A stretch of 38,214 nucleotides of DNA from an uncultured Actinomycetota bacterium (lineage in GTDB: Bacteria; Actinomycetota; Humimicrobiia; Humimicrobiales; Humimicrobiaceae). A program made the position numbers and the translations under genes. The notes beneath the pieces were generated by a model. That model made no database searches, was not told the DNA's origin, and worked only from the letters and a program-made list of their open reading frames with translations. Where the stretch lies: positions 1 to 38,214 of the forward strand of contig CAZODG010000001.1 in the NCBI GenBank assembly GCA_964578525.1. Direction: 5' to 3'. Numbering within the stretch: the stretch's first letter is position 1; the number at the start of each line of letters is the position of its first letter. Shown here piece by piece: positions 9,542-37,556 of the stretch.

Positions 9542-10408
9542 TTAAATAGTATTTGAATAATATTCAAGGTATTTTAAGCCTTTTTTAGATAATTTTCTCT
9601 TGCCGCTGCTGCCGGAGGCAAGCATTTTGTTCTTTTCCAGGTAGATTAATTCCCGGTATGAAGTAGAGAGACTAAAGCCCAGTTCGCTGGCTATCGTAGA
9701 AGGCCCGGCTTCTTCCAGTTCCAGGATCACAAAAAGGATCTTATTTTGTCTGTCGGATAATGCTTTATGGTCAAATTTATCTATGCCATCCGCCGGAGTT
9801 TTTTTATCCTCGTCGGGAATAACAGGTATCGTCTCACCGGTTGTCTTGATTTCCGTATCCTTTACGCTCTCACTCTTTTCAGGCTGTCCAAGTTTTAAAG
9901 ATATTACCGTCCCCTTTTTTATATTGTCTTTTACATCGATAGATCCCCCGGAAAAAGTTATAGTTTCTTTTACTATAGGAAAACCCGAACCCACTCCCCT
10001 GATGTATTCTTTCATTTTACTCGTAGCGGAAGTATATCCCGGCAGGAAAGCTTTTTCTTTATCTTCGATTCCCGGTCCCTGGTCCGTTATGATTATATGG
10101 TCTCCCCTTTCCAACACAGTAATCACAACTTCTTTGAAATCTGCGTGTATAAGATTCTCTATTATCTCTTTTATTATTGTATAAGGAATTCTTCCGCCAA
10201 TCTCATGGGATAGACTATAGGTTTTTTGGGTGGTTTCATTAATGAAGTCCGCAATATTATCATAGCTGAGATTCACTATCCTTGGAATGCTCCGCATATT
10301 GTCATAGATTGCGATTCTGACCGGTATTTTTTCAATGTTTCCATAGATTTTGTTGGAATCGGCAGCATTATTTGGTTTAGTATTTTCGTCAGGCATTATT
10401 AATGTCAA
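9542..10408 (-). CDS. GHKL (histidine-kinase-like) ATPase domain fused to a C-terminal winged-helix DNA-binding domain; function unknown
   Basis: 288 aa with Bergerat-fold motifs: N-box EIIENLIHAD, G1 DQGPGI, G2 GVGSGFPIV. No DHp/His box, TM segment or receiver is present. The C-terminus (LSDRQNKILFVILELEEAGPSTIASELGFSLSTSYRELIYLEKNKML) looks MarR/ArsR-like wHTH. The stop is 12 nt upstream of the dnaA ATG on the same strand. Confidence 0.7.
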   Translation of the reverse strand: MTLIMPDENTKPNNAADSNKIYGNIEKIPVRIAIYDNMRSIPRIVNLSYDNIADFINETTQKTYSLSHEIGGRIPYTIIKEIIENLIHADFKEVVITVLERGDHIIITDQGPGIEDKEKAFLPGYTSATSKMKEYIRGVGSGFPIVKETITFSGGSIDVKDNIKKGTVISLKLGQPEKSESVKDTEIKTTGETIPVIPDEDKKTPADGIDKFDHKALSDRQNKILFVILELEEAGPSTIASELGFSLSTSYRELIYLEKNKMLASGSSGKRKLSKKGLKYLEYYSNTI

Positions 10409-11623: not shown

Positions 11624-12481
11624 TTGAATTGGTTATTACAAATATTAAGCCCAATCCAGCATGGATTAGAGTACATAGTTATTTTTTTATATAATCATGT
11701 AGTTGCGAATTACGGCATAGTTATAATACTACTGACTATAATAGTAAGGATAGTCCTTGTCCCCCTTACCATAAGCCAGACCAGGTCTATGGCAAAAATG
11801 CAGAAAATACAGCCGGAGCTTAAAGAACTGCAAAAAAAATATAAAGATGACAAGCAAAAGCTGCAGCAGGAGACAATGGAGTTTTATAAGAAAAATAATG
11901 TAAATCCGCTGGCGGGATGCTTGCCTCTACTCTTTCAGATGCCTGTATTTTTTGCATTGTTCCAGGCACTCCGAAACCCCTCTGAAATTGTAACAAATGT
12001 TTTAGGAGGTTTTAACCTGGAGGGTGTTTCTAATAGTATAAACATAGGACTGGCAGGAATTCGATCTGCTTCGGAATTTACCCTGACCGGAGTCGCAAAT
12101 CCCAATTATAATTTCTTATGGATGAATTTAAATAAAATGGATCCTTATTTCATCCTGGTCATTTTAATGGTTGCCACAATGTTTCTGTCAATGAAGATGA
12201 CAACAACGGATGCCAGACAGTCGAAGATCATGTTTATAATGCCCTTAGTATTTGGGTTTATATCATGGCAATTCCCATCGGGAATATTGATATATTGGGT
12301 AACAACAAATGCGTGGTCCATTGGCCAGCAGGGGCTCGTAAATAAACTTGTTAAAAAAGAAAAAGTAAAAGAAGAATTAAAACAGGAAAAGGCAAGTCTT
12401 GCGGGAAGTGTCGAAATAAGCGAAGAAGAAAAGAAATCAATAAGAAGAAAATTAAAAAAGAAAAGGAAAAAGAAAAGATAA
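11624..12481 (+). CDS. yidC: YidC/Oxa1-family membrane protein insertase (short, Gram-positive-like form with basic C-tail)
   Basis: 285 aa with multiple TM segments. It has a conserved GCLPLLFQMPVFFALF helix and a Lys/Arg-rich tail (RRKLKKKRKKKR). TTG start with a GAAAGG SD. Confidence 0.9.
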   Translation: MNWLLQILSPIQHGLEYIVIFLYNHVVANYGIVIILLTIIVRIVLVPLTISQTRSMAKMQKIQPELKELQKKYKDDKQKLQQETMEFYKKNNVNPLAGCLPLLFQMPVFFALFQALRNPSEIVTNVLGGFNLEGVSNSINIGLAGIRSASEFTLTGVANPNYNFLWMNLNKMDPYFILVILMVATMFLSMKMTTTDARQSKIMFIMPLVFGFISWQFPSGILIYWVTTNAWSIGQQGLVNKLVKKEKVKEELKQEKASLAGSVEISEEEKKSIRRKLKKKRKKKR

Positions 12482-12507: not shown

Positions 12508-13110
12508 ATGACCGAAGATAAAAGTATAAAAGATGCTGTAAATGCATTTGTAGAATTACTGGAAGAAGAACAAAAAAGAAACAGGTTAGTAGAAAATACT
12601 CCTAAAAATATAGTAAAAGAAAAAGACATAGTAAAAGAAAAAGATATAGAGAGTAATGGGCTTGAAAAAACAAAAGTGATTTTAAAAAAAATATTAAAAC
12701 TCATATGTCCCGGAGAAGAAGTAAAGATTGAAGCAGATTCGGAAGAACTAAGGCTATCGGTCCAGGGCGAGGATCTGGGAATCGTTATAGGCCGGGACGG
12801 GAAGAATATACAGGCACTTGAGTATATTATAAACTTGATTGGGAAGAGAAAAAAATTTGTAGATAGGAATATAATAATAGATATAAAAGACTATAGAAAA
12901 AAAAGAATTGATGGGATAAAAAAAACTGCGATATTTATGGCAAAAAAAGCAATTAACGAAGGAAGAAAAATAGCATTAAAACCGATGGATTCTTACGAGA
13001 GAAAAATAATACATAATCTGCTCGCAAGATTTAGCAACGTGACAACAAGAAGCAGATACGATGAACCGAACAGAAGAATAATAATTTATCCAATAAAGAG
13101 CAGCAAATAG
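12508..13110 (+). CDS. jag: Jag/KhpB RNA-binding protein (KH + R3H domains)
   Basis: 200 aa with a KH GxxG loop (VIGRDGKNIQALEYI) and R3H (SYERKIIHNLL). It holds the conserved position after yidC. It contains an in-frame 18-nt tandem duplication (IVKEKD x2). Confidence 0.85.
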   Translation: MTEDKSIKDAVNAFVELLEEEQKRNRLVENTPKNIVKEKDIVKEKDIESNGLEKTKVILKKILKLICPGEEVKIEADSEELRLSVQGEDLGIVIGRDGKNIQALEYIINLIGKRKKFVDRNIIIDIKDYRKKRIDGIKKTAIFMAKKAINEGRKIALKPMDSYERKIIHNLLARFSNVTTRSRYDEPNRRIIIYPIKSSK

Positions 13111-13136
13111 AAAATATAGAGATTATTAAAAATATA

Positions 13137-13166
13137 AAATGGCACCGAAGTGTGCCATTTTTTTGT
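13137..13166 (+). terminator. Rho-independent terminator after jag
   Basis: Stem AAATGGCAC (13137-13145) pairs with GTGCCATTT (13152-13160) around a 6-nt loop, followed by a T-run. Confidence 0.6.
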
Positions 13167-13248
13167 TGGCTTTATTTTTGAATAAATATAAATATTAAAT
13201 ATAATAAGATCAGAAATTTTAAAAGTACCACAGGAGACAAGTGTAAAA

Positions 13249-14637
13249 ATGAAAGCGGAAATATACGATACTATAATAGCTATAGGTACAAGAGCCGGTG
13301 AAGCTGCGATTGGCATAGTCAAATTAAGTGGCAGCAGGTCGATTTTTATTGCTGACAAGATATTTAAAGCAAAAAATAAAAAGAAGATCAAAAATATTGG
13401 TACGTATAACATGCTTTACGGACATATTATTGATAATGAGGGCTATTTCATTGATGAAGTAATTGTTACGGTAATGAAAAACCCTGGTTCATATACCCGG
13501 GAAGATGTTGTAGAGATAAACTGTCACGGTGGAATAATTGCTACTACTAAAACGATGGAATTATGTATTGAAAACGGTGCAAGAATAGCGGATCCGGGAG
13601 AATTTACGAAAAGAGCTTTTTTAAATGGCAGAATAGATCTATCACAAGCGGAAGCGGTTATAGATCTGGTAAGATCAAGAACAGAACAAAGCCTGAGGCT
13701 CGCAGCGAAGAATTTAAGGGGTAATATTAAAGAAGAGATAAAGAGACTGAGAAAAAATCTTCTGGATATACGCGTACAACTGGAAGCCTCGGTAGACTTT
13801 ATTGAAGAAGACCTGGAAGTAACGCCATATCAGGAAATCACAAAAGAAATAAAAAAATTAGTTACAGAACTTGAAGAATTGATAATAAACGAAAAAAAGG
13901 GAGAGATTATAAAGAATGGTGTCAAAATTGCAATTATCGGGAAACCGAATGTAGGGAAATCAAGCTTACTGAATTTACTCTCCAGGAAAGAAAAGGCAAT
14001 AGTGACTCCAATTCCCGGAACGACGAGGGATGCAGTGGAGGAAATATTGTATGTTGAAGGAATACCGCTCATCCTGGTCGATACAGCCGGGATAAGAAAA
14101 ACAAGAAGCACGATAGAAAAAATAGGAGTAGACAAGAGTTTAAAACATATTGACGAAGCCGAGTTGATTCTACTGGTCCTAGACGGAAACAGGAAGTTGG
14201 AGCAAATGGATTTGCAAATAATAAATAAAATAAAAGGTAAAAGCATTATTTGCTGTATAAATAAAATAGATTTAAAACAAAAGCTGGAAATAGAAAGGAT
14301 CAAGAATTATTTTGATGAAAGAGATGTTATAAAGATTTCTGCATTAAAAGGAAAAGGAATTAAGGAGTTAGAAAATAAAATAAAATCTGTGATATTTGGT
14401 AATGGAGATATCGATCTGGAGGAAAAAATCATTATTAACAGAAGGCATAAAGAGATATTAGAAGAAGTAAATAAATCTTTAAATAGTGCAATGGAAGCAG
14501 TAAAAGACAGGATGTCCGAAGAATTTCCTTCATATGATTTAAAGACTGCATTTGAACTGCTGGGAGAGATAATAGGTGAAACTGCGAGAGAGGATATTCT
14601 GGAAAAGATATTCAGTCAATTCTGCATAGGTAAATAA
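13249..14637 (+). CDS. mnmE: tRNA modification GTPase MnmE (TrmE)
   Basis: 462 aa with G1 GKPNVGKSS, G3 DTAG, G4 NKID and the C-terminal CIGK motif. Confidence 0.95.
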   Translation: MKAEIYDTIIAIGTRAGEAAIGIVKLSGSRSIFIADKIFKAKNKKKIKNIGTYNMLYGHIIDNEGYFIDEVIVTVMKNPGSYTREDVVEINCHGGIIATTKTMELCIENGARIADPGEFTKRAFLNGRIDLSQAEAVIDLVRSRTEQSLRLAAKNLRGNIKEEIKRLRKNLLDIRVQLEASVDFIEEDLEVTPYQEITKEIKKLVTELEELIINEKKGEIIKNGVKIAIIGKPNVGKSSLLNLLSRKEKAIVTPIPGTTRDAVEEILYVEGIPLILVDTAGIRKTRSTIEKIGVDKSLKHIDEAELILLVLDGNRKLEQMDLQIINKIKGKSIICCINKIDLKQKLEIERIKNYFDERDVIKISALKGKGIKELENKIKSVIFGNGDIDLEEKIIINRRHKEILEEVNKSLNSAMEAVKDRMSEEFPSYDLKTAFELLGEIIGETAREDILEKIFSQFCIGK

Positions 14638-14676: not shown

Positions 14677-14692
14677 TGTTTCACGTGAAACA
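14677..14692. promoter_or_regulatory. parS: parS centromere-like site (ParB/Spo0J binding site)
   Basis: TGTTTCACGTGAAACA is a perfect 16-bp palindrome matching the Spo0J parS consensus TGTTNCACGTGAAACA. The palindrome extends to 18 bp (ATGTTTCACGTGAAACAT). Confidence 0.8.
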
Positions 14693-14708
14693 TTTATAAT
14701 ATTCAGAT

Positions 14709-16130
14709 ATGGGAATAAAAACAAAAAACGAAAATATATATGATGTAGTGGTAATAGGTAGCGGACATGCAGGTTGTGAGGCAGCTCTTAGTTCTGCAAG
14801 AAATGGTTCCAGGACTCTACTTGTATCAATAAATATGGATAGTATAGCTATTATGCCTTATGGCAGTACCGTGGGAGGTGCCGGAAAGAGCCAACTGTTA
14901 AGAGAAGCAGATATACTGGGCGGAGAGATCTCAAAAAATATAGATAAAAATTTAATTCATCTTAAAGAACTCAAAAATACGGAAAATAAGACCAATGCGG
15001 CCTTTCAGGCAATAGTTGATCGAAAAGGGTATTCTCTTTCAATGAAAGAAGTACTGGAAAAGCAAAGCAATTTAGATTTAAGGCAGGGGCTCGCGGTAAA
15101 TGTAGAAGAATATAAAAGCGGATATTTCTTATACACAAGTGATGAGATTGTGTACTCCTGCAGGTCTATCATTATATGCACCGGTACTTTCCTTAAAGCA
15201 AGAATTTTCTGGGGCGATTATATGATAGAAGCAGGGAGGCAGGGCGAAATATGCTCAAAAAAGCTGCTGGGTGGTTTGAAAAATTTTGATTTCAAATTCG
15301 GGAAATTAAAGAATTATGCCGCTCCCGTAGTGGATAAAAAATCAATTGATTTGAGTAATCTGAAAAAGCAGCAATATAGCAGGAAGAAATGGACATTTTC
15401 ACATGAAAGTAATTTTATAAAGAGAGAGCAGGTCTATTTTTATACGACTTATATAGAAAAAGATTTTTCCGGATTTTTACGGAGACATGTAGCCAGCATT
15501 AAAGATAATGGAATCAGTAATTATACTGATATATCAAAAGATGCCATTTCAATAGAAGATAGAATATTGAAAAAAGAGGATATTCAGAATATAGAGGTCT
15601 CAATAAAACCATTTGGTAGAGATACAGAAGAAGCATATCTGAATGGTCTTGAAACTGCAGTATCGGAAGAGGTACAGGTTGAAATGTTAAGAAAAATTAA
15701 AAATTTTGAGGGTGTGGAAATAACCAGACCCGGCTATGGAATAGAATACTACTATTTGCTTCCTTATCAACTAAAAGGAAATCTGGAAAGTAAAACCCTT
15801 AATAGATTTTTCTTCGCCGGCCAGATAAACGGAACCACTGGTTACGAAGAGTCAGCCGTACAGGGACTAATTGCAGGGATCAATGCATCCAGAAAAGCGA
15901 GAAACCTTAACAGTATTGTTGTAAATAGGGATGATGGCTATACGGGACAGCTAATAAGCATCCTGACAGAGAAAGAATCAAAAAGGTCCCGCAGCGGAAG
16001 ATTAATAATAAATAATGAAGATTTTTGCAACGATGATTCCAGTGATGTTAATAAAATGATGAAGATTCTATTAAGTATTGGCTCTGATGAAAGAGCAGAG
16101 AAAATCATGAGAAACATAATAAATAAATAA
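14709..16130 (+). CDS. Divergent, C-terminally truncated MnmG/GidA-family flavoprotein paralog
   Basis: 473 aa, colinear with the N-terminal ~470 aa of the adjacent canonical MnmG. It keeps the FAD motif VVIGSGHAGCEAA, plus GGAGKSQL, RPGYGIEYYY and FFAGQINGTTGYEES. It lacks the C-terminal ~150 aa and both conserved Cys positions. Confidence 0.75.
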   Translation: MGIKTKNENIYDVVVIGSGHAGCEAALSSARNGSRTLLVSINMDSIAIMPYGSTVGGAGKSQLLREADILGGEISKNIDKNLIHLKELKNTENKTNAAFQAIVDRKGYSLSMKEVLEKQSNLDLRQGLAVNVEEYKSGYFLYTSDEIVYSCRSIIICTGTFLKARIFWGDYMIEAGRQGEICSKKLLGGLKNFDFKFGKLKNYAAPVVDKKSIDLSNLKKQQYSRKKWTFSHESNFIKREQVYFYTTYIEKDFSGFLRRHVASIKDNGISNYTDISKDAISIEDRILKKEDIQNIEVSIKPFGRDTEEAYLNGLETAVSEEVQVEMLRKIKNFEGVEITRPGYGIEYYYLLPYQLKGNLESKTLNRFFFAGQINGTTGYEESAVQGLIAGINASRKARNLNSIVVNRDDGYTGQLISILTEKESKRSRSGRLIINNEDFCNDDSSDVNKMMKILLSIGSDERAEKIMRNIINK

Positions 16131-16133
16131 CGA

Positions 16134-16149
16134 TGTTTCACGTGAAACA
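16134..16149. promoter_or_regulatory. parS: parS centromere-like site (second copy)
   Basis: Identical TGTTTCACGTGAAACA, again within the 18-bp palindrome ATGTTTCACGTGAAACAT. It lies 3 nt after the paralog stop and about 30 nt before mnmG. Confidence 0.8.
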
Positions 16150-16175: not shown

Positions 16176-18053
16176 TTGAAAATGAAGTATGACATAATAG
16201 TCGTAGGTGCCGGGCATGCGGGCTGCGAAGCGGCACTGGCATCTGCAAGATTGGGGCTAAAAACTATACTGCTAACGATTAATGTCGATAAAATTGCTTT
16301 AATGCCCTGTAATCCATCAATAGGAGGATTAGGGAAGAGTCAGCTGGTCAGGGAACTGGACGCACTGGGCGGACAGATGGCAAAGATAGCCGATAATACT
16401 CTAATACAGATAAAGGTACTGAACAGAAGAAAAGGTCCAGCAGTCCAGGCGCTAAGGGCACAGATAGACAAGAATAAATACGAAATTGAGATGAAGAAAA
16501 TCCTTGAAAATACTCAGAGATTAACTCTAAGACAGGGAACAATAAATAAAATACTTGTTAAAAATAATAAGGCATTTGGGGTTGAAACAGAAAGCGGATT
16601 AATTTTCGAGGGGAAATCAGTAGTAATTACTGCCGGTACTTTTTTGAGAGGAAGAATAATAATAGGGGAAAAAGATTATAAAGCCGGACGGATGGGGGAA
16701 TATCCTGCGATGAATTTAACCAGGAACTTAATTGATCTTAATTTTGATATAGGCAGATTTCAGACAGCTACTTCTCCGAGGGTCGATAAAAGAACAGTGG
16801 ATTTTTCTAAAACAATTGTTCAATATGGAGATGGAGAACCTTTAAGCTTTTCATTCTGGGATGAAGAAAAGATATACGAAAACACTGATTGTTATCTTAC
16901 CTACACAAATAAGAAAACCCATAAAATTATCGCGGAAAATATAGAGAAATCACCGATAAGATCCGGGATGGTTGATACCCACGGACCAAGGCACTGCCCT
17001 TCTATAGATAGAAAAGTTATAAATTTCCCCGGGAAAAAAAGACACCCGGTTTTTATTGAACCGGAGGGGACACATACCTGTGAGATGTATCTTCAGGGAC
17101 TTACTACAAGTATGCCCGCAGAAATACAGCAAAAAATAGTAAATACTGTTGAAGGATTGGAAAATGCCAGAATAATAAGACCCGGTTATGCAGTAGAGTA
17201 TGATTATATAATTCCGAGTCAACTGAATTATACTCTGGAATCGAAAAACATAGAAAATTTATATTTTGCGGGCCAGATAAACGGTACTTCAGGGTATGAA
17301 GAGGCAGCGGCACAGGGGCTTGTTGCCGGAATAAATGCGTCACTTAAGATACAGGGCAGATCACAAATGATGCTGACCAGAGATACCAGTTATATAGGAG
17401 TTTTAATAGACGATCTTCTTACCAAAAATCTTATAGAACCTTACAGGATGTATACTTCCAGAGCTGAATACAGGCTGACATTACGGTCCGATAATGCCGA
17501 TATGAGATTGTGTGGATTGGGTAATAGAATAGGGCTGATAACAGATGACCAGTATGAGAAAGTAAGAAGAAAGGAAGAAAAAACAAATAAACTGGTGTCA
17601 AAATTAAAAAATATTATTTTAAATCCGGATAAAAAGAATAATGAAATACTTAAAAAGATCGGAACCAGCTCCATTGATACCCCCTTAAATATTTATAAAC
17701 TTTTAAAAAGACCTGAAGTCAGAATTTATGATGTATTGGACTATTTTATCGGTAAAAGAAGCAACTATGATAAGAGAGTGCTTGAGCAGGCAGAAATCAG
17801 AACAAAATACGAAGGTTATATAAACCGGCAGCTGGCAGAAATTAAAAAATTAGGGAATCTGGAAAGATATTATCTTTTACCGGATCTGGACTATTTTAAA
17901 ATAATAGGTTTGACTTACGAAGCGCAGGAAAAACTAACAAAAATCAAGCCAAATACTCTTGGCCAGGCTTCAAGGATCGCAGGAGTATCACCGGCAGATA
18001 TATCAATAATCATGTTAAATTTAAAGGGTAGATCAAAGAAGGTGTTTAATTGA
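16176..18053 (+). CDS. mnmG: tRNA uridine 5-carboxymethylaminomethyl modification enzyme MnmG (GidA)
   Basis: 625 aa with VVGAGHAGCEAA, MPCNPSIGG, GPRHCPSID, FAGQINGTSGYEEAAAQG and a full C-terminal domain. The real start is probably the ATG at 16182 (MKYDIIVVG) rather than the TTG at 16176. Confidence 0.95.
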   Translation: MKMKYDIIVVGAGHAGCEAALASARLGLKTILLTINVDKIALMPCNPSIGGLGKSQLVRELDALGGQMAKIADNTLIQIKVLNRRKGPAVQALRAQIDKNKYEIEMKKILENTQRLTLRQGTINKILVKNNKAFGVETESGLIFEGKSVVITAGTFLRGRIIIGEKDYKAGRMGEYPAMNLTRNLIDLNFDIGRFQTATSPRVDKRTVDFSKTIVQYGDGEPLSFSFWDEEKIYENTDCYLTYTNKKTHKIIAENIEKSPIRSGMVDTHGPRHCPSIDRKVINFPGKKRHPVFIEPEGTHTCEMYLQGLTTSMPAEIQQKIVNTVEGLENARIIRPGYAVEYDYIIPSQLNYTLESKNIENLYFAGQINGTSGYEEAAAQGLVAGINASLKIQGRSQMMLTRDTSYIGVLIDDLLTKNLIEPYRMYTSRAEYRLTLRSDNADMRLCGLGNRIGLITDDQYEKVRRKEEKTNKLVSKLKNIILNPDKKNNEILKKIGTSSIDTPLNIYKLLKRPEVRIYDVLDYFIGKRSNYDKRVLEQAEIRTKYEGYINRQLAEIKKLGNLERYYLLPDLDYFKIIGLTYEAQEKLTKIKPNTLGQASRIAGVSPADISIIMLNLKGRSKKVFN

Positions 18054-18784
18054 ATACTTCCGATATTTTAAAAGAATCACTTGCAGATCTCGGCATCAGC
18101 TTTTCTCAGGACCATATCAGGATTCTGGAAAAATATCTAAATTTAGCTTATGAGTATAATCATAAATTCAATCTTATTGGTACCAAGGATAAAATAGGCA
18201 TCCTTATAAGGCATATCCTGGATTCTATCTCGATACTTAAATATGGAAATATGTTTTTTGATAATGGAGATCATGTACGGAAAGTACTTGATTTGGGAAC
18301 AGGGGCAGGATTACCCGGAGCGCTTTTGTCTATTTTTTTAAAGAATAAAACATTTTATCTGCTGGATAAAACATTAAAAAAAATCAATTTCTTAAATATG
18401 ATAGTAGAGGAATTAGGATTAAAAAATGTCAGGATTATCAGAGGCAGGGCAGAGGAGCTGGGCAATGAAGCCCCATATAGAGAAACTTTCGATGTAGTTC
18501 TGGCGAGAGCCGTTGCCGGTTTAAATATTTTAAGTGAATTAACAATTCCATTTTGTAGAATAAATGGTAAAATTATATTTTATAAAAGTAAAAAAATATT
18601 CACCGAACTGGAAAGCAACAGGGAAGTTATCTCAAAATTGGGGGGGAAGGTAGATAATTTGTTAGAAGTAGAGGTCCCTTATTTAAATGAATACAGGACT
18701 TTTCTGGTAATAAAGAAAGTATTAAAATCTCCGGTAATATATCCACGAGCTTATAATAAAATAGTTAAGAGGCCATTGCAGTAA
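18050..18784 (+). CDS. rsmG: 16S rRNA (guanine527-N7)-methyltransferase RsmG (GidB)
   Basis: 244 aa with SAM motif VLDLGTGAGLPG. The TTG start overlaps the mnmG stop (TTGA), and the position is conserved. Confidence 0.9.
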   Translation: MNTSDILKESLADLGISFSQDHIRILEKYLNLAYEYNHKFNLIGTKDKIGILIRHILDSISILKYGNMFFDNGDHVRKVLDLGTGAGLPGALLSIFLKNKTFYLLDKTLKKINFLNMIVEELGLKNVRIIRGRAEELGNEAPYRETFDVVLARAVAGLNILSELTIPFCRINGKIIFYKSKKIFTELESNREVISKLGGKVDNLLEVEVPYLNEYRTFLVIKKVLKSPVIYPRAYNKIVKRPLQ

Positions 18785-18845: not shown

Positions 18846-19682
18846 GTGATCCATAAATTGAAATTTTTTGATATGATAATCAAAAATAAAAAACAGGACG
18901 AAACGGTAAATAAAAAACGGTTGAGCAGAATAATTGCTTTTACAAATCAAAAAGGTGGTGTGGGTAAAAGTACAACAGCAGTAAATGTATCTGCATATTT
19001 AAGCTCTTATGGCTACAAAACTTTACTTATAGATCTCGATCCGCAAAGTAATTCAACGAGCGGTCTGGGCGTAAATCCATCGGATGTAAAACAGTCAATA
19101 TATGATATATTGATTCATGACAGTGAGCCGGATGAAATAATTATAGATACCTCATATAAAAATCTAAGACTTCTTCCATCATCAATACAGCTTGCCGGAG
19201 CAGAAATTGAACTGGTTCCGAGCCTGAAAAGAGAGTTTAGATTGAAAGAAGCCATAATTAAGATTGAAAAAGATTATGATTTCATACTTATCGATTGTCC
19301 GCCGGCGCTGGGGCTTTTGACTATTAATGCATTAACAGCGGCCAGAGAGGTTATTATACCAATACAATGCGAGTATTATGCACTTGAAGGACTTGGTCAA
19401 CTTTTAAATACAATAAATCTGGTTAAAAAAAATCTTAATGATGGCTTGAAAATAAAGGGAGCTATAATGACCATGTATGATCCAAGAATAAAACTTGCAG
19501 AGCAGGTCATAGAGGAAGTCAAAAATTATTTCTCGGAAAAAGTATATAAGACAGTGATCCCAAGAAACGTGAGGCTGAGTGAGGCCCCCAGTTACGGCAA
19601 ACCCATAATAGATTATGATCCTCATTGCAAAGGGGCAGAAGCTTACAACAATTTTACAAAGGAAGTGATTGAAAATGGCTAG
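18846..19682 (+). CDS. parA: Chromosome partitioning ATPase ParA/Soj
   Basis: Deviant Walker A (NQKGGVGKSTTAVN) plus the ParA-typical DLDPQ and IDCPP motifs. The track start at 18846 is GTG; the ATG at 18873 is an equally plausible start. Confidence 0.9.
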   Translation: MIHKLKFFDMIIKNKKQDETVNKKRLSRIIAFTNQKGGVGKSTTAVNVSAYLSSYGYKTLLIDLDPQSNSTSGLGVNPSDVKQSIYDILIHDSEPDEIIIDTSYKNLRLLPSSIQLAGAEIELVPSLKREFRLKEAIIKIEKDYDFILIDCPPALGLLTINALTAAREVIIPIQCEYYALEGLGQLLNTINLVKKNLNDGLKIKGAIMTMYDPRIKLAEQVIEEVKNYFSEKVYKTVIPRNVRLSEAPSYGKPIIDYDPHCKGAEAYNNFTKEVIENG

Positions 19683-20535
19683 AAGAGGTTTAGGCAGGGG
19701 ACTTGGTGCTTTAATTCCAAGCATAGACAAATCTATGGAAGGTGAATCAAATACAATAGTTGAACTGCCATTGGATAAGATTATCCCAAACAAAAATCAG
19801 CCCAGGAGCAGGTTTGACGATGAATCACTTGCTGAGCTTTCCGAATCAATAAAGGAATTTGGGGTCATCCAGCCGATAGTTGTAAGGAGATTGGGTGAAG
19901 AAGAAAAATATGAAATTGTTACCGGAGAGAGAAGATACAGAGCCACTAAAAAGATCGGTGTTAATACAATTCCTTCTATAATAGTTAAAGATGTTGATGA
20001 TATATCTTCCCTTGAAATGGCTCTTATTGAAAACATTCATAGAGATAACTTAAGCCCCATGGAAAAAGCTCATACGTTTAAACAACTTATAGATGAATTT
20101 AAGATGACCCATGACCAACTTTCAAAAAGGGTTGGAAAAAGCAGGGTAACAATAACAAACTTATTGAGATTGATCTCGCTCCCCCTGGAAATCCAAAAAT
20201 TGATAAACGAAGGAAAGATAAGCGAGGGACATGCGAGGTCGATACTGGCAATAGACGGGGAAGAGGAAAGGCTAAAAATCGCAAATCTCATAATAAAAAA
20301 CGACCTCAGCGTAAGAGATGTAGAAAAAATAGCAATTAAGAAAAAAGAAACAGTCGAAGGTAAAAAGGATAAAAAAGTATTGCAATTAAGTAAATTTCCC
20401 GAAATATCCCAGAAATTATCCGAGCACTTGAATGCTCCCGCTAAAGTATCAATGAGCAAAAAAAAGGGGAAAATTGTAATAGAGTTTGGCTCCATTAGAG
20501 ATCTTGAAAGAATTGTGAGTAGAATTGTCAAGTAG
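19669..20535 (+). CDS. parB: Chromosome partitioning protein ParB/Spo0J
   Basis: 288 aa with N-terminal RGLGRGLGALI, the arginine patch VTGERRYRA, and an HTH (HDQLSKRVGKSRVTITNLLRL). It overlaps the parA end. Confidence 0.9.
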   Translation: MKMARRGLGRGLGALIPSIDKSMEGESNTIVELPLDKIIPNKNQPRSRFDDESLAELSESIKEFGVIQPIVVRRLGEEEKYEIVTGERRYRATKKIGVNTIPSIIVKDVDDISSLEMALIENIHRDNLSPMEKAHTFKQLIDEFKMTHDQLSKRVGKSRVTITNLLRLISLPLEIQKLINEGKISEGHARSILAIDGEEERLKIANLIIKNDLSVRDVEKIAIKKKETVEGKKDKKVLQLSKFPEISQKLSEHLNAPAKVSMSKKKGKIVIEFGSIRDLERIVSRIVK

Positions 20536-34504: not shown

Positions 34505-35344
34505 ATGGAAGGCGTGCGAATAAAATTATCTATACGTATTTTTTTATCTGTTTTATGCTTCTTGTTTACCATCCTATGGTTAATACCGGTAATAGCAGCG
34601 GTTGTGACCTCTTTCCGCACCTATAATGATATCCTTCAAAACGGATTCTGGTCTATGCCGAAATCCTTAACTTTTAGAAATTTCATCGAAGCATGGAATC
34701 GAGGTGGGCTGGCTCACTATTTACCGAATAGTTTCATTATAACGATACCATGCCTGATTGGTACCCTTTTCCTGTCGTCTCTGGGAGGCTATGCTCTCTC
34801 GCGTTTCCGCTTCCCAGGCAATAAGCTGATATTGTTCATATTTGTGGCAGGTATGATGCTGCCCTTCCAGATTTTGCTTCTGCCTGTTTTTAAGCTCACA
34901 GATGCACTAAGCATATATGATACTTATTGGGCGTTGATTATTTTTCACACATCCTTTCAGCTTGGTTTTTGTACATTCGTCCTGCGTAATTATATGCGCA
35001 CTATGCCGGAAGAGATTTTAGAGGCGGCGCGGGTTGATGGCTGCAGCGAGTTCCGCGTCTACTGGCAAATTATGATGCCGCTTACTCTGCCAGCAATGGG
35101 AGCACTGGCAACGCTCGAGTTTACATGGATATTTAATGACTTTTTATGGGCGTTAATCCTGCTGCAACGTGATGCGCTTAAGCCGGTCTCGACCGGTCTG
35201 GCGACGCTGGTGGGACAGTACATCATGGACTGGACGGTAATCACTGCCGGCTCGATGATTGCTGCTCTACCGACGGTGATTGTATTCCTGTTTCTGCAGC
35301 GCTACTTTGTTTCCGGGCTGACGTTGGGGGCGGTAAAGGGGTAA
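34505..35344 (+). CDS. Sugar ABC transporter permease (MalG/UgpE-like)
   Basis: 279 aa with an EAA loop (LEAARVDGCSEFRVYWQIMMP). Confidence 0.9.
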   Translation: MEGVRIKLSIRIFLSVLCFLFTILWLIPVIAAVVTSFRTYNDILQNGFWSMPKSLTFRNFIEAWNRGGLAHYLPNSFIITIPCLIGTLFLSSLGGYALSRFRFPGNKLILFIFVAGMMLPFQILLLPVFKLTDALSIYDTYWALIIFHTSFQLGFCTFVLRNYMRTMPEEILEAARVDGCSEFRVYWQIMMPLTLPAMGALATLEFTWIFNDFLWALILLQRDALKPVSTGLATLVGQYIMDWTVITAGSMIAALPTVIVFLFLQRYFVSGLTLGAVKG

Positions 35345-35438
35345 AGCTGAAGAGATATATTCTTAGATCCCCACACCTAAAAATCGGTATTTATTGAGAT
35401 AATGGTTGTTAGTTTAACAAAAAGTAATTTTTATTTAA

Positions 35439-37556
35439 TTGCTAAGGGATATGAGTATGAAAAAATCGAATATGACACAACTATTGCTTGGTGTCGACTA
35501 TTACCCCGAGCAATGGCCCGAGGAGCGCTGGCATATTGATGCCCGGTTAATGCACGAAGCCGGCCTTTCTGTTGTACGCCTGGCTGAGTTTGCCTGGGCT
35601 AAAATGGAACCTTCAGAAGGTCAGCATGATTGGCTGTGGCTGGATAAAGCTATAGAGATATTGGTGAATGAGGGATTGCAAGTGGTGTTAGGCACGCCTA
35701 CTGCCAACCCGCCTGCCTGGCTGATTCAAGCTAGCCCGGATATCCTGCCGGTAGATGCGCAGGGCCACCGTAGAAATTTTGGCTCCCGCCGACATTATTG
35801 TTTCAACAATACAATCTACCACGATGCCACACGCCGTATTGTGACAGCGATGGGTGAACACTTTGAGCATAACGCGGCCGTAATTGGTTGGCAACTGGAC
35901 AATGAATTCGGTTGTCATGACACTACACGCTGCTATTGTAAAAACTGCAGAACAGCCTTCCAAGTATGGTTACAAAAAAAGTACGGTTCGCTCGACATGC
36001 TCAACACTGCATGGGGTAATGTCTTTTGGAGCCAATCCTATAGCGATTGGACGCAAATCATGCCGCCTAACCTAACTGTAACCGAAGCTAATCCCAGCCA
36101 TGTATTGGACTGGTATCGTTTCTCTTCGGATTCGGTGGCGATTTACCAGCAAATTCAGATAGACATTTTACGCCGACTCTGCCCGGACAAATTTATTACC
36201 ACGAACTTTATGGGTACTTTCTCCGACTTTAATCATTACATGATGGCTGCGCCGCTGGATTTTATTACCTGGGATAGTTACCCCACCGGCTATGCAGAAC
36301 TCATAAGGCCAACAGCTTACATGCCGAACCAACCCCAGCCAGATGTAGCTTATGATGTTGGTGACCCTTATGTGACTGGTTTCTGTCACGATCTGATGCG
36401 TGGTCTGAAAGAAGGTACATCATTCTGGGTGATGGAGCAGCAGGCTGGTCAAATCAATTGGGGCAAGGTCAACCCGGCCGTACGTCCCGGTACGGTCCGT
36501 CTGTGGACGTGGCACAACATGGCCGCCGGGGCCGATGTCGTTGTCTATTTTCGCTGGAGAGCTTGTCGGTTTGCCCAGGAGCAGTATCACAGTGGCCTGT
36601 TGCACCACGACGGTACATTCGATATGGGGTACCAGGAAGTGCTGAGATTGCAGAAAGAGCAATACTTGATGCAATCCATCCAGGGCACGTGCGTGATGGC
36701 CGAGGTAGCTATCCTGGCAGATTATGAGGACCTTTGGGCGCTGGATTTGCAGCCGCATAATCACCTTATTACTTACTGGCGCCATCTATTTGCTTACTAT
36801 CGCGCATTAGCTCGAGCTGGTGTGCCAACTGATGTAATCTCAACCGATGCAGATCTCTCGCGGTATAAGCTGGTGATTGCTCCCACTTTATTGCTGGCCG
36901 ATGACACGCTGTCCACTCGTCTGGCTAATTACGTTAAATCCGGTGGTATGCTGCTTTTAGGTATACGTTCCGGCTTCAAGATGCTTACCAACATAGTGAC
37001 AGATAAACCTTTACCCGGCCCGTTCCATAACCTGGCAGGTGCAACGGTTGAAGCCTGGCACTCACTGCCACCTGATGTGATTTATCCGTTGATTGACTAT
37101 AAATTACAGACACTCGAAGCAACAATATGGGCCGAGGGCCTTGTAGCAGACTCTGCTGATCCGTTGATATCCTATAACGGCGGGCCGCTGGAAGGTAAGG
37201 CTGCTGTTACTGTCAATAAGATAGGAAAGGGGCGCGTTGTTTACACAGGTTTATGGCCTAATGAAGCAGTACTTGATTCACTAATCAGTTGGCTTTTACC
37301 CCAGGCAGGTATCAAGCAGCTGGCGCATGTACCGGAAGGTGTTCTCACCTATCGCCGAAAAGATTCCGGGTGTGATTATCTGTTTCTGCTGAACTTTAAA
37401 GATGTACCTGCCGTAATCCGTCTCAACATTAATGATGTCACTGATGCTTTTACAGACCAGCAAGTAGGTCGTAAGGTGACAATTGCTGCGCGTGATTTAC
37501 GGCTGTTGAAACTTAAAGTAATATCCCAAAAGGAGGCGATTGAAGAAGGTTTGTAG
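35439..37556 (+). CDS. Glycoside hydrolase family 42 beta-galactosidase
   Basis: About 700 aa with GVDYYPEQWPEERW at the N-terminus and WQLDNEFG (acid/base Glu in the NE motif). The three-domain length is typical of GH42. The likely start is the ATG at 35454 or 35457 rather than the TTG at 35439. Confidence 0.9.
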   Translation: MLRDMSMKKSNMTQLLLGVDYYPEQWPEERWHIDARLMHEAGLSVVRLAEFAWAKMEPSEGQHDWLWLDKAIEILVNEGLQVVLGTPTANPPAWLIQASPDILPVDAQGHRRNFGSRRHYCFNNTIYHDATRRIVTAMGEHFEHNAAVIGWQLDNEFGCHDTTRCYCKNCRTAFQVWLQKKYGSLDMLNTAWGNVFWSQSYSDWTQIMPPNLTVTEANPSHVLDWYRFSSDSVAIYQQIQIDILRRLCPDKFITTNFMGTFSDFNHYMMAAPLDFITWDSYPTGYAELIRPTAYMPNQPQPDVAYDVGDPYVTGFCHDLMRGLKEGTSFWVMEQQAGQINWGKVNPAVRPGTVRLWTWHNMAAGADVVVYFRWRACRFAQEQYHSGLLHHDGTFDMGYQEVLRLQKEQYLMQSIQGTCVMAEVAILADYEDLWALDLQPHNHLITYWRHLFAYYRALARAGVPTDVISTDADLSRYKLVIAPTLLLADDTLSTRLANYVKSGGMLLLGIRSGFKMLTNIVTDKPLPGPFHNLAGATVEAWHSLPPDVIYPLIDYKLQTLEATIWAEGLVADSADPLISYNGGPLEGKAAVTVNKIGKGRVVYTGLWPNEAVLDSLISWLLPQAGIKQLAHVPEGVLTYRRKDSGCDYLFLLNFKDVPAVIRLNINDVTDAFTDQQVGRKVTIAARDLRLLKLKVISQKEAIEEGL

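Follow-up and report, generated by a model that had tools for sequence, protein, structure and literature searches.

The 38,214-nucleotide window analysed here, contig CAZODG010000001.1 of an uncultured member of the Humimicrobiaceae (Actinomycetota), carries two tandem genes of the MnmG (GidA) family directly downstream of mnmE. MnmE and MnmG together form a tRNA-modifying enzyme that is universal and of medical relevance (GTPBP3–MTO1 in humans), and its mechanism is still debated. The second of the two genes (copy 2) encodes a complete MnmG; the first (copy 1) encodes a 473-residue GidA-fold protein in which the flavin adenine dinucleotide (FAD) fold is kept and which is not a functional MnmG equivalog. 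Copy 1 belongs to a selected, lineage-wide and graded family of MnmG paralogs, nearly all bracketed by parS sites; these points, like the existence of full-length forms of copy 1 that retain the cysteines, go beyond the initial annotation of the sequence. It arose as the upstream member of an ancient tandem duplication that became fixed in a deep, uncultured and mostly low-GC lineage of Actinomycetota; the duplicated unit itself was probably parS plus mnmG. We propose, with a probability of roughly 0.45, that copy 1 would take the place of the idle MnmG protomer, pairing with copy 2 as a flavoprotein subunit without catalytic function. The features on which this account draws are listed below, with E. 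coli MnmG numbering for C47, N48 and C277.

13249..14637, + strand: mnmE, 462 amino acids, with the catalytic FCIGK motif at its end (Pfam TrmE_N, MnmE_helical and MMR_HSR1)
14677..14692, palindrome without strand: parS site 1, the perfect 16-bp palindrome TGTTTCACGTGAAACA, ending 16 nt 5′ of the copy 1 ATG
14709..16130, + strand: copy 1, the short mnmG paralog, 473 amino acids (open reading frame, Pfam, NCBIfam, AlphaFold2 model and dN/dS)
14757..14786, + strand: FAD dinucleotide motif GSGHAGCEAA of copy 1, residues 17–26, retained
14853..14864, + strand: MPYG of copy 1 (residues 49–52) replacing MPCN, with C47 and N48 gone (alignment)
15531..15575, + strand: degenerate MnmG-specific motif 1 of copy 1 (SKDAISIEDRIL; E. 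coli residues 273–287), with C277 replaced by Ala279 (alignment)
15984..16127, + strand: lineage-specific C-terminal tail of copy 1, residues 426–473, replacing a helical domain of about 200 residues (neither PF21680 nor PF13932)
16134..16149, palindrome without strand: parS site 2, identical to site 1, 3 nt past the stop of copy 1, with the mnmG ATG following 32 nt later
16176/16182–18053, + strand: copy 2, full-length mnmG (TIGR00136, 816.6 bits)

The open reading frame (ORF) of copy 2 comprises 625 amino acids when counted from 16176; the 623-residue product of the ATG at 16182 is likelier and matches the relatives. Copy 1 was colinear with copy 2 and identical to it at 158/420 positions (38%, E = 2e-93). 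At the first diagnostic motif copy 1 reads AIMPYGSTVGGAGKSQL where its neighbour reads ALMPCNPSIGGLGKSQL, and at the second it reads SKDAISIEDRIL in place of GPRHCPSIDRKV. In an alignment that included Escherichia coli MnmG, the columns of C47 and C277 were occupied by Tyr51 and Ala279, and no offset cysteine was found; the two cysteines have therefore been lost and not shifted. An offset of this kind had been named in the initial annotation, made from the letters alone, as an observation that would overturn it. Its descriptive claims were borne out by the alignment, the ORF translation and the domain searches: two tandem GidA genes with a colinear 473-residue first copy, the differences in both motifs alongside a retained GSGHAGCEAA, and a missing C-terminal helical domain.

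The Pfam GIDA model (PF01134) matched residues 12–399 of copy 1 with 330.9 bits (cutoff 22.1), covering model positions 1–389 of 391, while PF21680 (GIDA_C_1st) and PF13932 (SAM_GIDA_C), both present in the neighbouring MnmG, had no match in copy 1. The MnmG equivalog model TIGR00136 reached 351.1 bits on copy 1, below its cutoff of 524.85 and over model positions 1–416 of 616 only. The protein ends about 48 residues past the equivalent of E. coli MnmG residue 425. An AlphaFold2 model had a mean predicted local distance difference test score (pLDDT) of 77.4 and a predicted template modelling score (pTM) of 0.83, and superposed on MnmG/GidA structures in Foldseek with template modelling (TM) scores of 0.77–0.85. 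Low pLDDT was seen at residues 267–271, in the motif 1 equivalent, and in the tail of residues 426–473 (pLDDT 32–65), which is predicted to form two helices and shares just 34% identity with the homologue at locus L001.

Membership of the TrmFO/RlmFO family was rejected. Copy 1 scored 69.5 bits against NF003739 (cutoff 262) and 53.2 against TIGR00137 (cutoff 428.65), with a match to residues 311–425 only; Foldseek TM scores to 3G5Q, 3G5R and 3G5S were 0.41–0.42 and the root-mean-square deviation exceeded 13 Å; and in the tree copy 1 fell inside MnmG and not with TrmFO. The statement of the initial annotation that the protein is neither TrmFO nor a normal MnmG thus holds.

A protein search returned dozens of relatives of 394–484 amino acids with the GIDA domain only, from 96% down to about 45% identity. 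It also returned relatives of about 590–627 amino acids that are closer to copy 1 (44–52%) than is the MnmG of the window itself. Within this set both cysteine motifs were absent from every short relative and present in every long one. The short proteins formed one clade in a neighbour-joining tree, sister to a clade of the long, cysteine-retaining proteins, and the window MnmG lay outside both. Around short and long proteins alike the gene order was mnmE, copy 1, copy 2, rsmG, parA, parB, and copy 2 was a complete MnmG at all loci checked. The topology is explained by both the short and the long cysteine-retaining proteins being the upstream copy 1 of a tandem pair. In 200 bootstrap replicates the copy 2 clade received 100% support, the long copy 1 clade 94%, and the grouping of copy 1 with copy 2 against other bacterial MnmGs 88%, from which the duplication is old and lineage-specific.

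To sample loci independently of copy 1, the near-invariant motif 1 version of copy 2 (THGPRHCPSIDRKVINFP) was used, which yielded 80 metagenome loci; 63 of them reach 1.3 kb or more upstream of copy 2 and provide 56 distinct copy 1 sequences. A GidA-family ORF lay between mnmE and copy 2 at 63/63 loci. Full-length copy 1 accounted for 15/56 sequences (602–624 amino acids), in which both C47 and C277 were present and no catalytic or tRNA-binding residue was missing. Short copy 1 accounted for 40/56 (325–487 amino acids); all lacked C47, mostly replaced by F or Y, and a C277-equivalent cysteine persisted in 9/40, in forms of 459–487 amino acids. The remaining sequence is a 520-residue ORF, a full-length copy 1 frameshifted by a 1-nt deletion (locus L156, around position 2557). 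L156 is otherwise identical to the intact contig L154 over the 491 nt compared; the frameshift probably stems from misassembly or from a very recent variant. Positions G13 and G15 were kept in 55/55 copy 1 sequences whose N-terminus was covered, and Y308 and Y377 in 56/56.

An exhaustive profile search of cluster representatives recovered further diverged, short, cysteine-less members, and the three whose context was examined all occupied the slot between mnmE and mnmG. Two of these three, in L091 (5799–7199, 32% GC) and L093 (1098–2576, 55% GC), had no parS pair and were nearest to ordinary MnmGs and not to the window paralog; they may represent independent, convergent origins or a long-branch artefact. 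Relatives of copy 2 carry the names Ca. Hydromicrobium/Hydromicrobiaceae, and one cluster of short copy 1 proteins is named Ca. Subteraquimicrobiales (class Ca. Aquicultoria). A survey of clusters of orthologous groups (COGs) found MnmG in 0/74 cultured Actinobacteria genomes (PMC5954106), so that MnmE together with two GidA copies marks these deep classes. The named short relatives are labelled 'FAD-dependent oxidoreductase [Actinomycetota bacterium]', and database labels for the family include 'FAD-binding protein' and, wrongly, 'MnmG'; counts of MnmG genes should leave the paralog out. At locus L001 mnmG is split into 505 and 104 amino acids, rsmG is 124 and rnpA 72 amino acids long, which looks like indel-prone long-read assembly and not biology.

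Copy 1 of the window is bracketed by the two parS sites. The palindrome TGTTTCACGTGAAACA is the parS used in the ParB literature; at up to 2 mismatches it occurred at these two positions only in the window, with 0 occurrences expected by chance. With the same tolerance the pair bracketed copy 1 at 8/8 related loci first checked, and it did so at locus L092 as well. Among the 63 metagenome loci the position of site 1 was shared by most (up to 1 mismatch) and a pair surrounded copy 1 at nearly all. At loci with a full-length copy 1, site 2 lies inside the last codons of that gene. All 16/16 bases were conserved across relatives just 31–38% identical in copy 1. As a control, ordinary MnmG loci were taken from the matches listed in a scan with GH[AS]GCEAAL and TRPGY..E, and 75 were scored: parS lay nearby at 32/75 and directly upstream of mnmG at 4/75. 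The window thus resembles other chromosomes in that parS matches exactly, is proximal to the origin and adjoins parAB, and differs from ordinary mnmG loci in that a pair precisely brackets one gene. Being consensus palindromes close to the origin, with parAB present, the two sites are predicted to bind ParB, and the products of parA and parB are likely the readers of both. With the pair flanking copy 1 here and in nearly all relatives examined, the unit that was duplicated was probably parS plus mnmG. The duplication may owe its fixation in part to selection for a second origin-proximal parS, the gene copy then being co-opted, and the layout suggests a link between the duplication of a centromere site and the birth of a gene family.

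Beside a parS site, the otherwise tight spacing between mnmE, copy 1 and copy 2 contained very AT-rich (15–21% GC), non-coding inserts of 0.6–1.9 kb at some loci (L167, 2343–4229; L159, 1638–2714; L170 and L172, 1673–2301). No ORF of at least 70 amino acids was found in the AT-rich gaps of L167 and L159, and the inserts of L159, L167 and L170 showed no Rfam match, no runs of N and no enrichment of DnaA boxes.

The residues kept and lost by the short clade were tabulated with the domain boundaries and functional-residue list of PMC12397908 (Table S3). The clade keeps G13, G15, G52, G53, G67, G68, G156, T157, Y308 and Y377, with G13 and G15 invariant in 38/38 short relatives and T157 present in 36/38. 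It is changed at C47, N48, R96, T199–P202, R275 and C277 and has lost R427, R432 and R436. Position 47 is F in 24, Y in 12, N in 1 and S in 1, and position 48 is G in 34 and S in 4 (n = 38), against C and N in 54/54 full-length proteins of the same table; a cysteine equivalent to C277 occurs in just 5/38. G200 is recurrently replaced by Y or F, and P202 is alanine in 38/38. Of the basic tRNA-binding sites (R96, R275, K283, R286, R427, R432 and R436), the window paralog carries Q for R96, S for R427, I for R432 and D for R436; the positions of K283 and R286 are still basic there and in most short forms. The segments that contact MnmE (R82–V92, R290–F296, R427–S431, 516–517, 548–555 and 608–622) are degenerate or absent.

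Catalytic MnmGs show conservation of 90% or more at 108 positions; of these, 67 are kept in the short clade, 40 have lost constraint and one is newly fixed, N48G being that sole new residue. By domain, retention was 44/46 (FAD domain), 16/33 (insertion domain 2), 7/15 (insertion domain 1) and 0/14 (helical stub). With 40 positions unconstrained and 1/108 newly fixed, the pattern is one of lost constraint on substrate and partner surfaces without a new active site. The short proteins are basic overall in net charge and isoelectric point; charge falls in insertion domain 1 and rises in insertion domain 2.

The size classes show that copy 1 was reduced stepwise. MnmE-contact residues in the C-terminal domain were altered first: full-length copy 1 is already changed at R515, P516, E517 and K589 and carries an 18-residue deletion. 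Loss of C47, of the helical domain and of motif 1 (with C277) came next, intermediates being the 459–487-residue forms that lack C47 and still have a C277-equivalent cysteine. Much of insertion domain 2 was lost last. The smallest forms (319–350 amino acids aligned) lack motif 1 and half to two-thirds of residues 193–272, and keep all four FAD-domain segments. The 473-residue form of the window is a middle stage, in which insertion domain 2, motif 1 excepted, is complete.

Motif 1 has its own version in copy 2 of this lineage. In place of GPxYCPSIEDKVxRF a near-invariant GPRHCPSIDRKVINF occupies residues ~270–284 (16983–17027), with Y276H and R286N. This stretch, where MnmG meets the MnmE C-terminal helix, may have co-evolved with MnmE or with copy 1.

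The ratio of nonsynonymous to synonymous substitution rates (dN/dS) of the window paralog was 0.22–0.23 against two relatives (dS 0.2–0.46); in the same comparison it was 0.10–0.12 for mnmG, 0.10–0.12 for mnmE, 0.15–0.22 for rsmG and 0.17–0.22 for jag. By size class, copy 1 gave 0.18–0.22 in the 325-residue forms, 0.16–0.25 in those of 339–487 residues (0.15–0.25 for the short classes overall) and 0.10–0.15 in the full-length forms, with copy 2 at 0.05–0.19 in the same genome pairs. These values (0.10–0.25) indicate that copy 1 is selected at the protein level in all size classes, and its constraint is about two-fold relaxed relative to MnmG. In matched genomes the divergence of copy 1 exceeded that of copy 2 by 1.7x in the FAD domain, 2.7x in insertion domain 2, 3.7x in the helical stub, 3.9x in insertion domain 1 and ~32x in motif 1. 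A pseudogene was rejected on the uninterrupted reading frame of 55/56 copy 1 sequences, on dN/dS and on presence at 63/63 loci. The initial annotation had taken the intact ORF as an argument against decay and had named frameshifts or stops in relatives, and absence of the gene from related genomes, as grounds for abandoning its idea. The argument stands with dN/dS near 0.2; a single 1-nt indel was seen among the 56 sequences, and copy 1 was absent from none of the related loci.

The proposed role takes its departure from the known enzyme. E. coli MnmG carrying C47A, C277A or both mutations still reduces FAD with reduced nicotinamide adenine dinucleotide (NADH) and makes no 5-carboxymethylaminomethyluridine (cmnm5U; PMC10723064), and MnmE is docked by the MnmG C-terminal domain and by motif 1, which contacts the MnmE swivel helix in E. 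coli (PMC12397908). Both papers agree with the initial annotation, which had taken the two cysteines to be essential and the C-terminal domain to bind MnmE. Since copy 1 lacks these cysteines, that domain and an intact motif 1, it is predicted neither to carry out the MnmG reaction and make cmnm5U nor to dock MnmE in the known way; the known tRNA-binding arginines are lost as well. Copy 2, in which every catalytic, tRNA-binding and MnmE-binding residue of the site table is present, and MnmE, whose C-terminal FC[IV]GK was found at 11/11 loci checked, form a complete system by virtue of these intact residues.

The E. coli α2β2 complex is intrinsically asymmetric: MnmE and FAD are bound by one MnmG subunit, its counterpart being idle, and each MnmG dimer takes up a single tRNA (PMC12397908, PMC4027165). 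Copy 1 shows the pattern of a pseudoenzyme partner: it is the paralog of an active oligomer, lacks the catalytic residues, accompanies the active paralog at 63/63 loci and has a dN/dS of 0.15–0.25. Conservation of the FAD domain predicts that it would bind FAD. The homodimer surface of MnmG is said to lie in the FAD-binding and insertion ('NADH-binding') domains, and copy 1 retains the former and, in its window form, the latter. Copy 1 would pair with full-length MnmG through this surface, giving a permanently asymmetric dimer in which the full-length subunit alone would bind MnmE and tRNA and carry out the chemistry; the asymmetry would mirror that of E. coli MnmEG. The stronger form of this proposal, in which MnmEG of this lineage would be a three-protein complex and the homodimer would have been replaced by an obligate heterodimer of MnmG and a cysteine-less, tail-less paralog, is put forward more tentatively, as somewhat less probable than the pairing itself.

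Several observations weigh against a partner role. In E. coli, flavin is retained poorly by the C47A/C277A double mutant (PMC10723064). The smallest relatives lack half to two-thirds of residues 193–272, which possibly belong to the dimer surface. The basic charge of copy 1 may leave RNA binding within its reach, and the heterodimer of copy 1 and copy 2 is itself a prediction from sequence. All copy 1 sequences come from metagenomes, without a cultured carrier; the metagenome runs that contain the window sequence are from lake water or unlabelled, and their contigs are fragmentary and broken at the two parS repeats.

The main rival reading, which we consider unlikely, is that copy 1 instead handles flavin as an accessory, either as an active NADH:FAD oxidoreductase or as an FAD carrier that, on its own or in loose association with MnmEG, would feed or buffer reduced flavin for MnmG without being its dimer partner. 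Such a role would fit the reduction of FAD by cysteine-less E. coli MnmG, where MnmG alone catalyses the step (PMC10723064), the weak binding of FAD by E. coli MnmG (PMC12397908), the strongest constraint within the paralog, which falls on its FAD domain, and the presence in the window form of an insertion domain 2 that is complete bar motif 1. However, the 319–350-residue forms have deleted regions proposed to bind NADH (PMC12397908) and yet are under the same selection, copy 2 is fully equipped to reduce its own FAD, and the poor flavin retention of the double cysteine mutant (PMC10723064) speaks against a carrier as well.

A neofunctionalised flavoenzyme, acting on another substrate unrelated to uridine 34 and left at its birthplace beside mnmG, is improbable. 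The ORF is intact and selected, the FAD fold is preserved, and the replacements in the former uridine pocket are recurrent and non-random (F/Y for C47, G for N48, Y/F for G200, and Ala for P202 in 38/38). However, 1/108 positions newly fixed against 40 unconstrained is the signature of relaxation and not of a rebuilt active site, and the substrate-side domains keep shrinking in the relatives. Moreover, copy 1 never leaves the mnmE–mnmG slot nor occurs without a full MnmG (63/63 loci), and no new partner gene co-occurs in the contexts examined.

Still less credible is a cysteine-independent RNA modifier, working for example by a ThyX-like polarisation of the substrate and possibly at another RNA position. 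ThyX performs a flavin-dependent methylene transfer without a cysteine nucleophile (reviewed in PMC5954106), whether the MnmG cysteines act as nucleophiles is left undecided in PMC10723064, and copy 1 has K283 and R286 basic in most short forms and is basic overall. Against these points, E. coli C47A and C277A are inactive for cmnm5U (PMC10723064); R96, R427, R432, R436 and the helical domain, which serve tRNA and MnmE binding, are gone; and the methylene donor arrives via the MnmE C-terminal helix on motif 1, which is degenerate here (PMC12397908).

We give next to no credence to a decaying duplicate or passenger, that is, a functionless protein whose gene would serve as a spacer between selected parS sites or for translational coupling: the parS sites are indeed far better conserved (16/16 bases) than the protein (31–38% identity), and copy 1 evolves 2–4 times faster than copy 2 and keeps losing segments, but dN/dS is 0.10–0.25 in all size classes, 55/56 sequences are uninterrupted (the exception being a 1-nt indel relative to a near-identical intact contig), and the constraint is focused on the FAD domain, a pattern that selection for a spacer or for coupling cannot produce. 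The initial annotation had offered three options for copy 1: the pseudoenzyme or partner is favoured here, the neofunctionalised flavoprotein is retained as an improbable alternative, and the decaying duplicate is rejected.

Compared with known systems, copy 1 is a direct paralog of MnmG/GidA (PF01134, TIGR00136; 3CP8, 2ZXH/2ZXI, 3CES, 9HIP), with which it shares the fold, the FAD domain and mnmE as a neighbour; unlike MnmG it lacks C47, N48, C277, motif 1, the tRNA-binding arginines and both MnmE-binding helical domains. TrmFO/RlmFO, the 'small Gid' folate/FAD-dependent 5-methyluridine (m5U) methyltransferases (NF003739, TIGR00137; 3G5Q), resemble it in their size of about 440 amino acids, in a GidA-related FAD domain and in having no MnmG C-terminal domain, but TrmFO needs catalytic cysteines (PMC5954106), which copy 1 is missing. 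TTHA1897 of Thermus thermophilus (2CUL, 225 residues in the PDB chain) is a stand-alone GidA-type FAD domain (TM score 0.75, target-normalised) and resembles the end-point approached by the 325-residue relatives. It differs in that identity is 13% and that it is not known as a tandem mnmG paralog or as linked to mnmE, and it is itself without a known function. In trypanosomatids, the prozymes of AdoMetDC (PMC5201418, PMC3663545) and of deoxyhypusine synthase (same papers) are likewise dead duplicates, selected and always found with the active paralog. For the prozymes hetero-oligomers and an effect on activity have been demonstrated, whereas the complex of copy 1 is a predicted one, and the likeness is mechanistic and not one of homology. 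If copy 1 has a partner role, the few dead-paralog subunits listed for RNA modification would gain a bacterial flavoprotein. Further dead-paralog partners in tRNA modification are TsaB with TsaD (N6-threonylcarbamoyladenosine, t6A, in bacteria), ADAT3 with ADAT2, and Trm6 with Trm61. Literature searches for an inactive MnmG/GidA paralog or pseudoenzyme found no published description.

The cryo-electron microscopy study of 2025 (PMC12397908) found an unexpectedly asymmetric complex with one MnmG protomer engaged and left the division of labour between protomers undecided. A lineage in which one MnmG copy has been disabled and trimmed and is nevertheless selected is a natural experiment on these protomer roles, and dozens of graded variants are available, from full-length, active-looking proteins to a 325-residue FAD domain. 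If the heterodimer were obligate, it would be natural proof that one protomer per dimer suffices for MnmE docking, tRNA binding and chemistry, and the series from 620 to 325 amino acids would define the minimal 'silent' protomer.

The genes flanking the tandem pair are as follows.

11624–12481, + strand: yidC (ORF list)
12508–13110, + strand: jag (ORF list)
18050..18784, + strand: rsmG (gidB) (ORF; GidB Pfam match at the same place in relatives)
18846..20535, + strand: parA and parB (ORFs; ParA/CbiA and ParB_N/HTH_ParB Pfam matches in syntenic loci)

A radical-SAM gene follows parB, also on the + strand. Upstream of yidC and on the opposite strand lie dnaA and dnaN, and dnaA, dnaN and parAB are all within 10 kb. 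Just 5′ of mnmE a bidirectional terminator-like hairpin (13136–13161) is followed by a promoter-like TTGAAT-16-TATAAT (13178–13205). In a scan for terminators no + strand site was found between mnmE, copy 1 and mnmG, and the first terminator-like site on that strand 3′ of the promoter-like sequence was at 18507. The lack of an earlier terminator-like site suggests an operon of mnmE, copy 1, mnmG and rsmG, and copy 1 is probably co-transcribed with mnmE and mnmG. A TATAAT hexamer at 14695–14700, 8 nt 5′ of the copy 1 ATG, was not flagged by the consensus promoter scan, and a Shine-Dalgarno sequence was not visible; a leaderless transcript starting beside parS site 1 may be an extra source of the paralog. 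Rfam and tRNA scans of the whole window gave no match.

Directly after dnaA, on the − strand, the window encodes a 288-residue HATPase_c protein (9542–10408), a gene found in the same position in the 8 related loci that extend that far upstream. GC content was 0.49–0.50 at 35001–37000 against 0.30–0.44 elsewhere in the window (mostly near 0.36). This stretch covers a glycoside hydrolase family 42 (GH42) beta-galactosidase gene (ORF 35439–37556) that closes a sugar ABC-transporter cluster, and may be horizontally acquired DNA.

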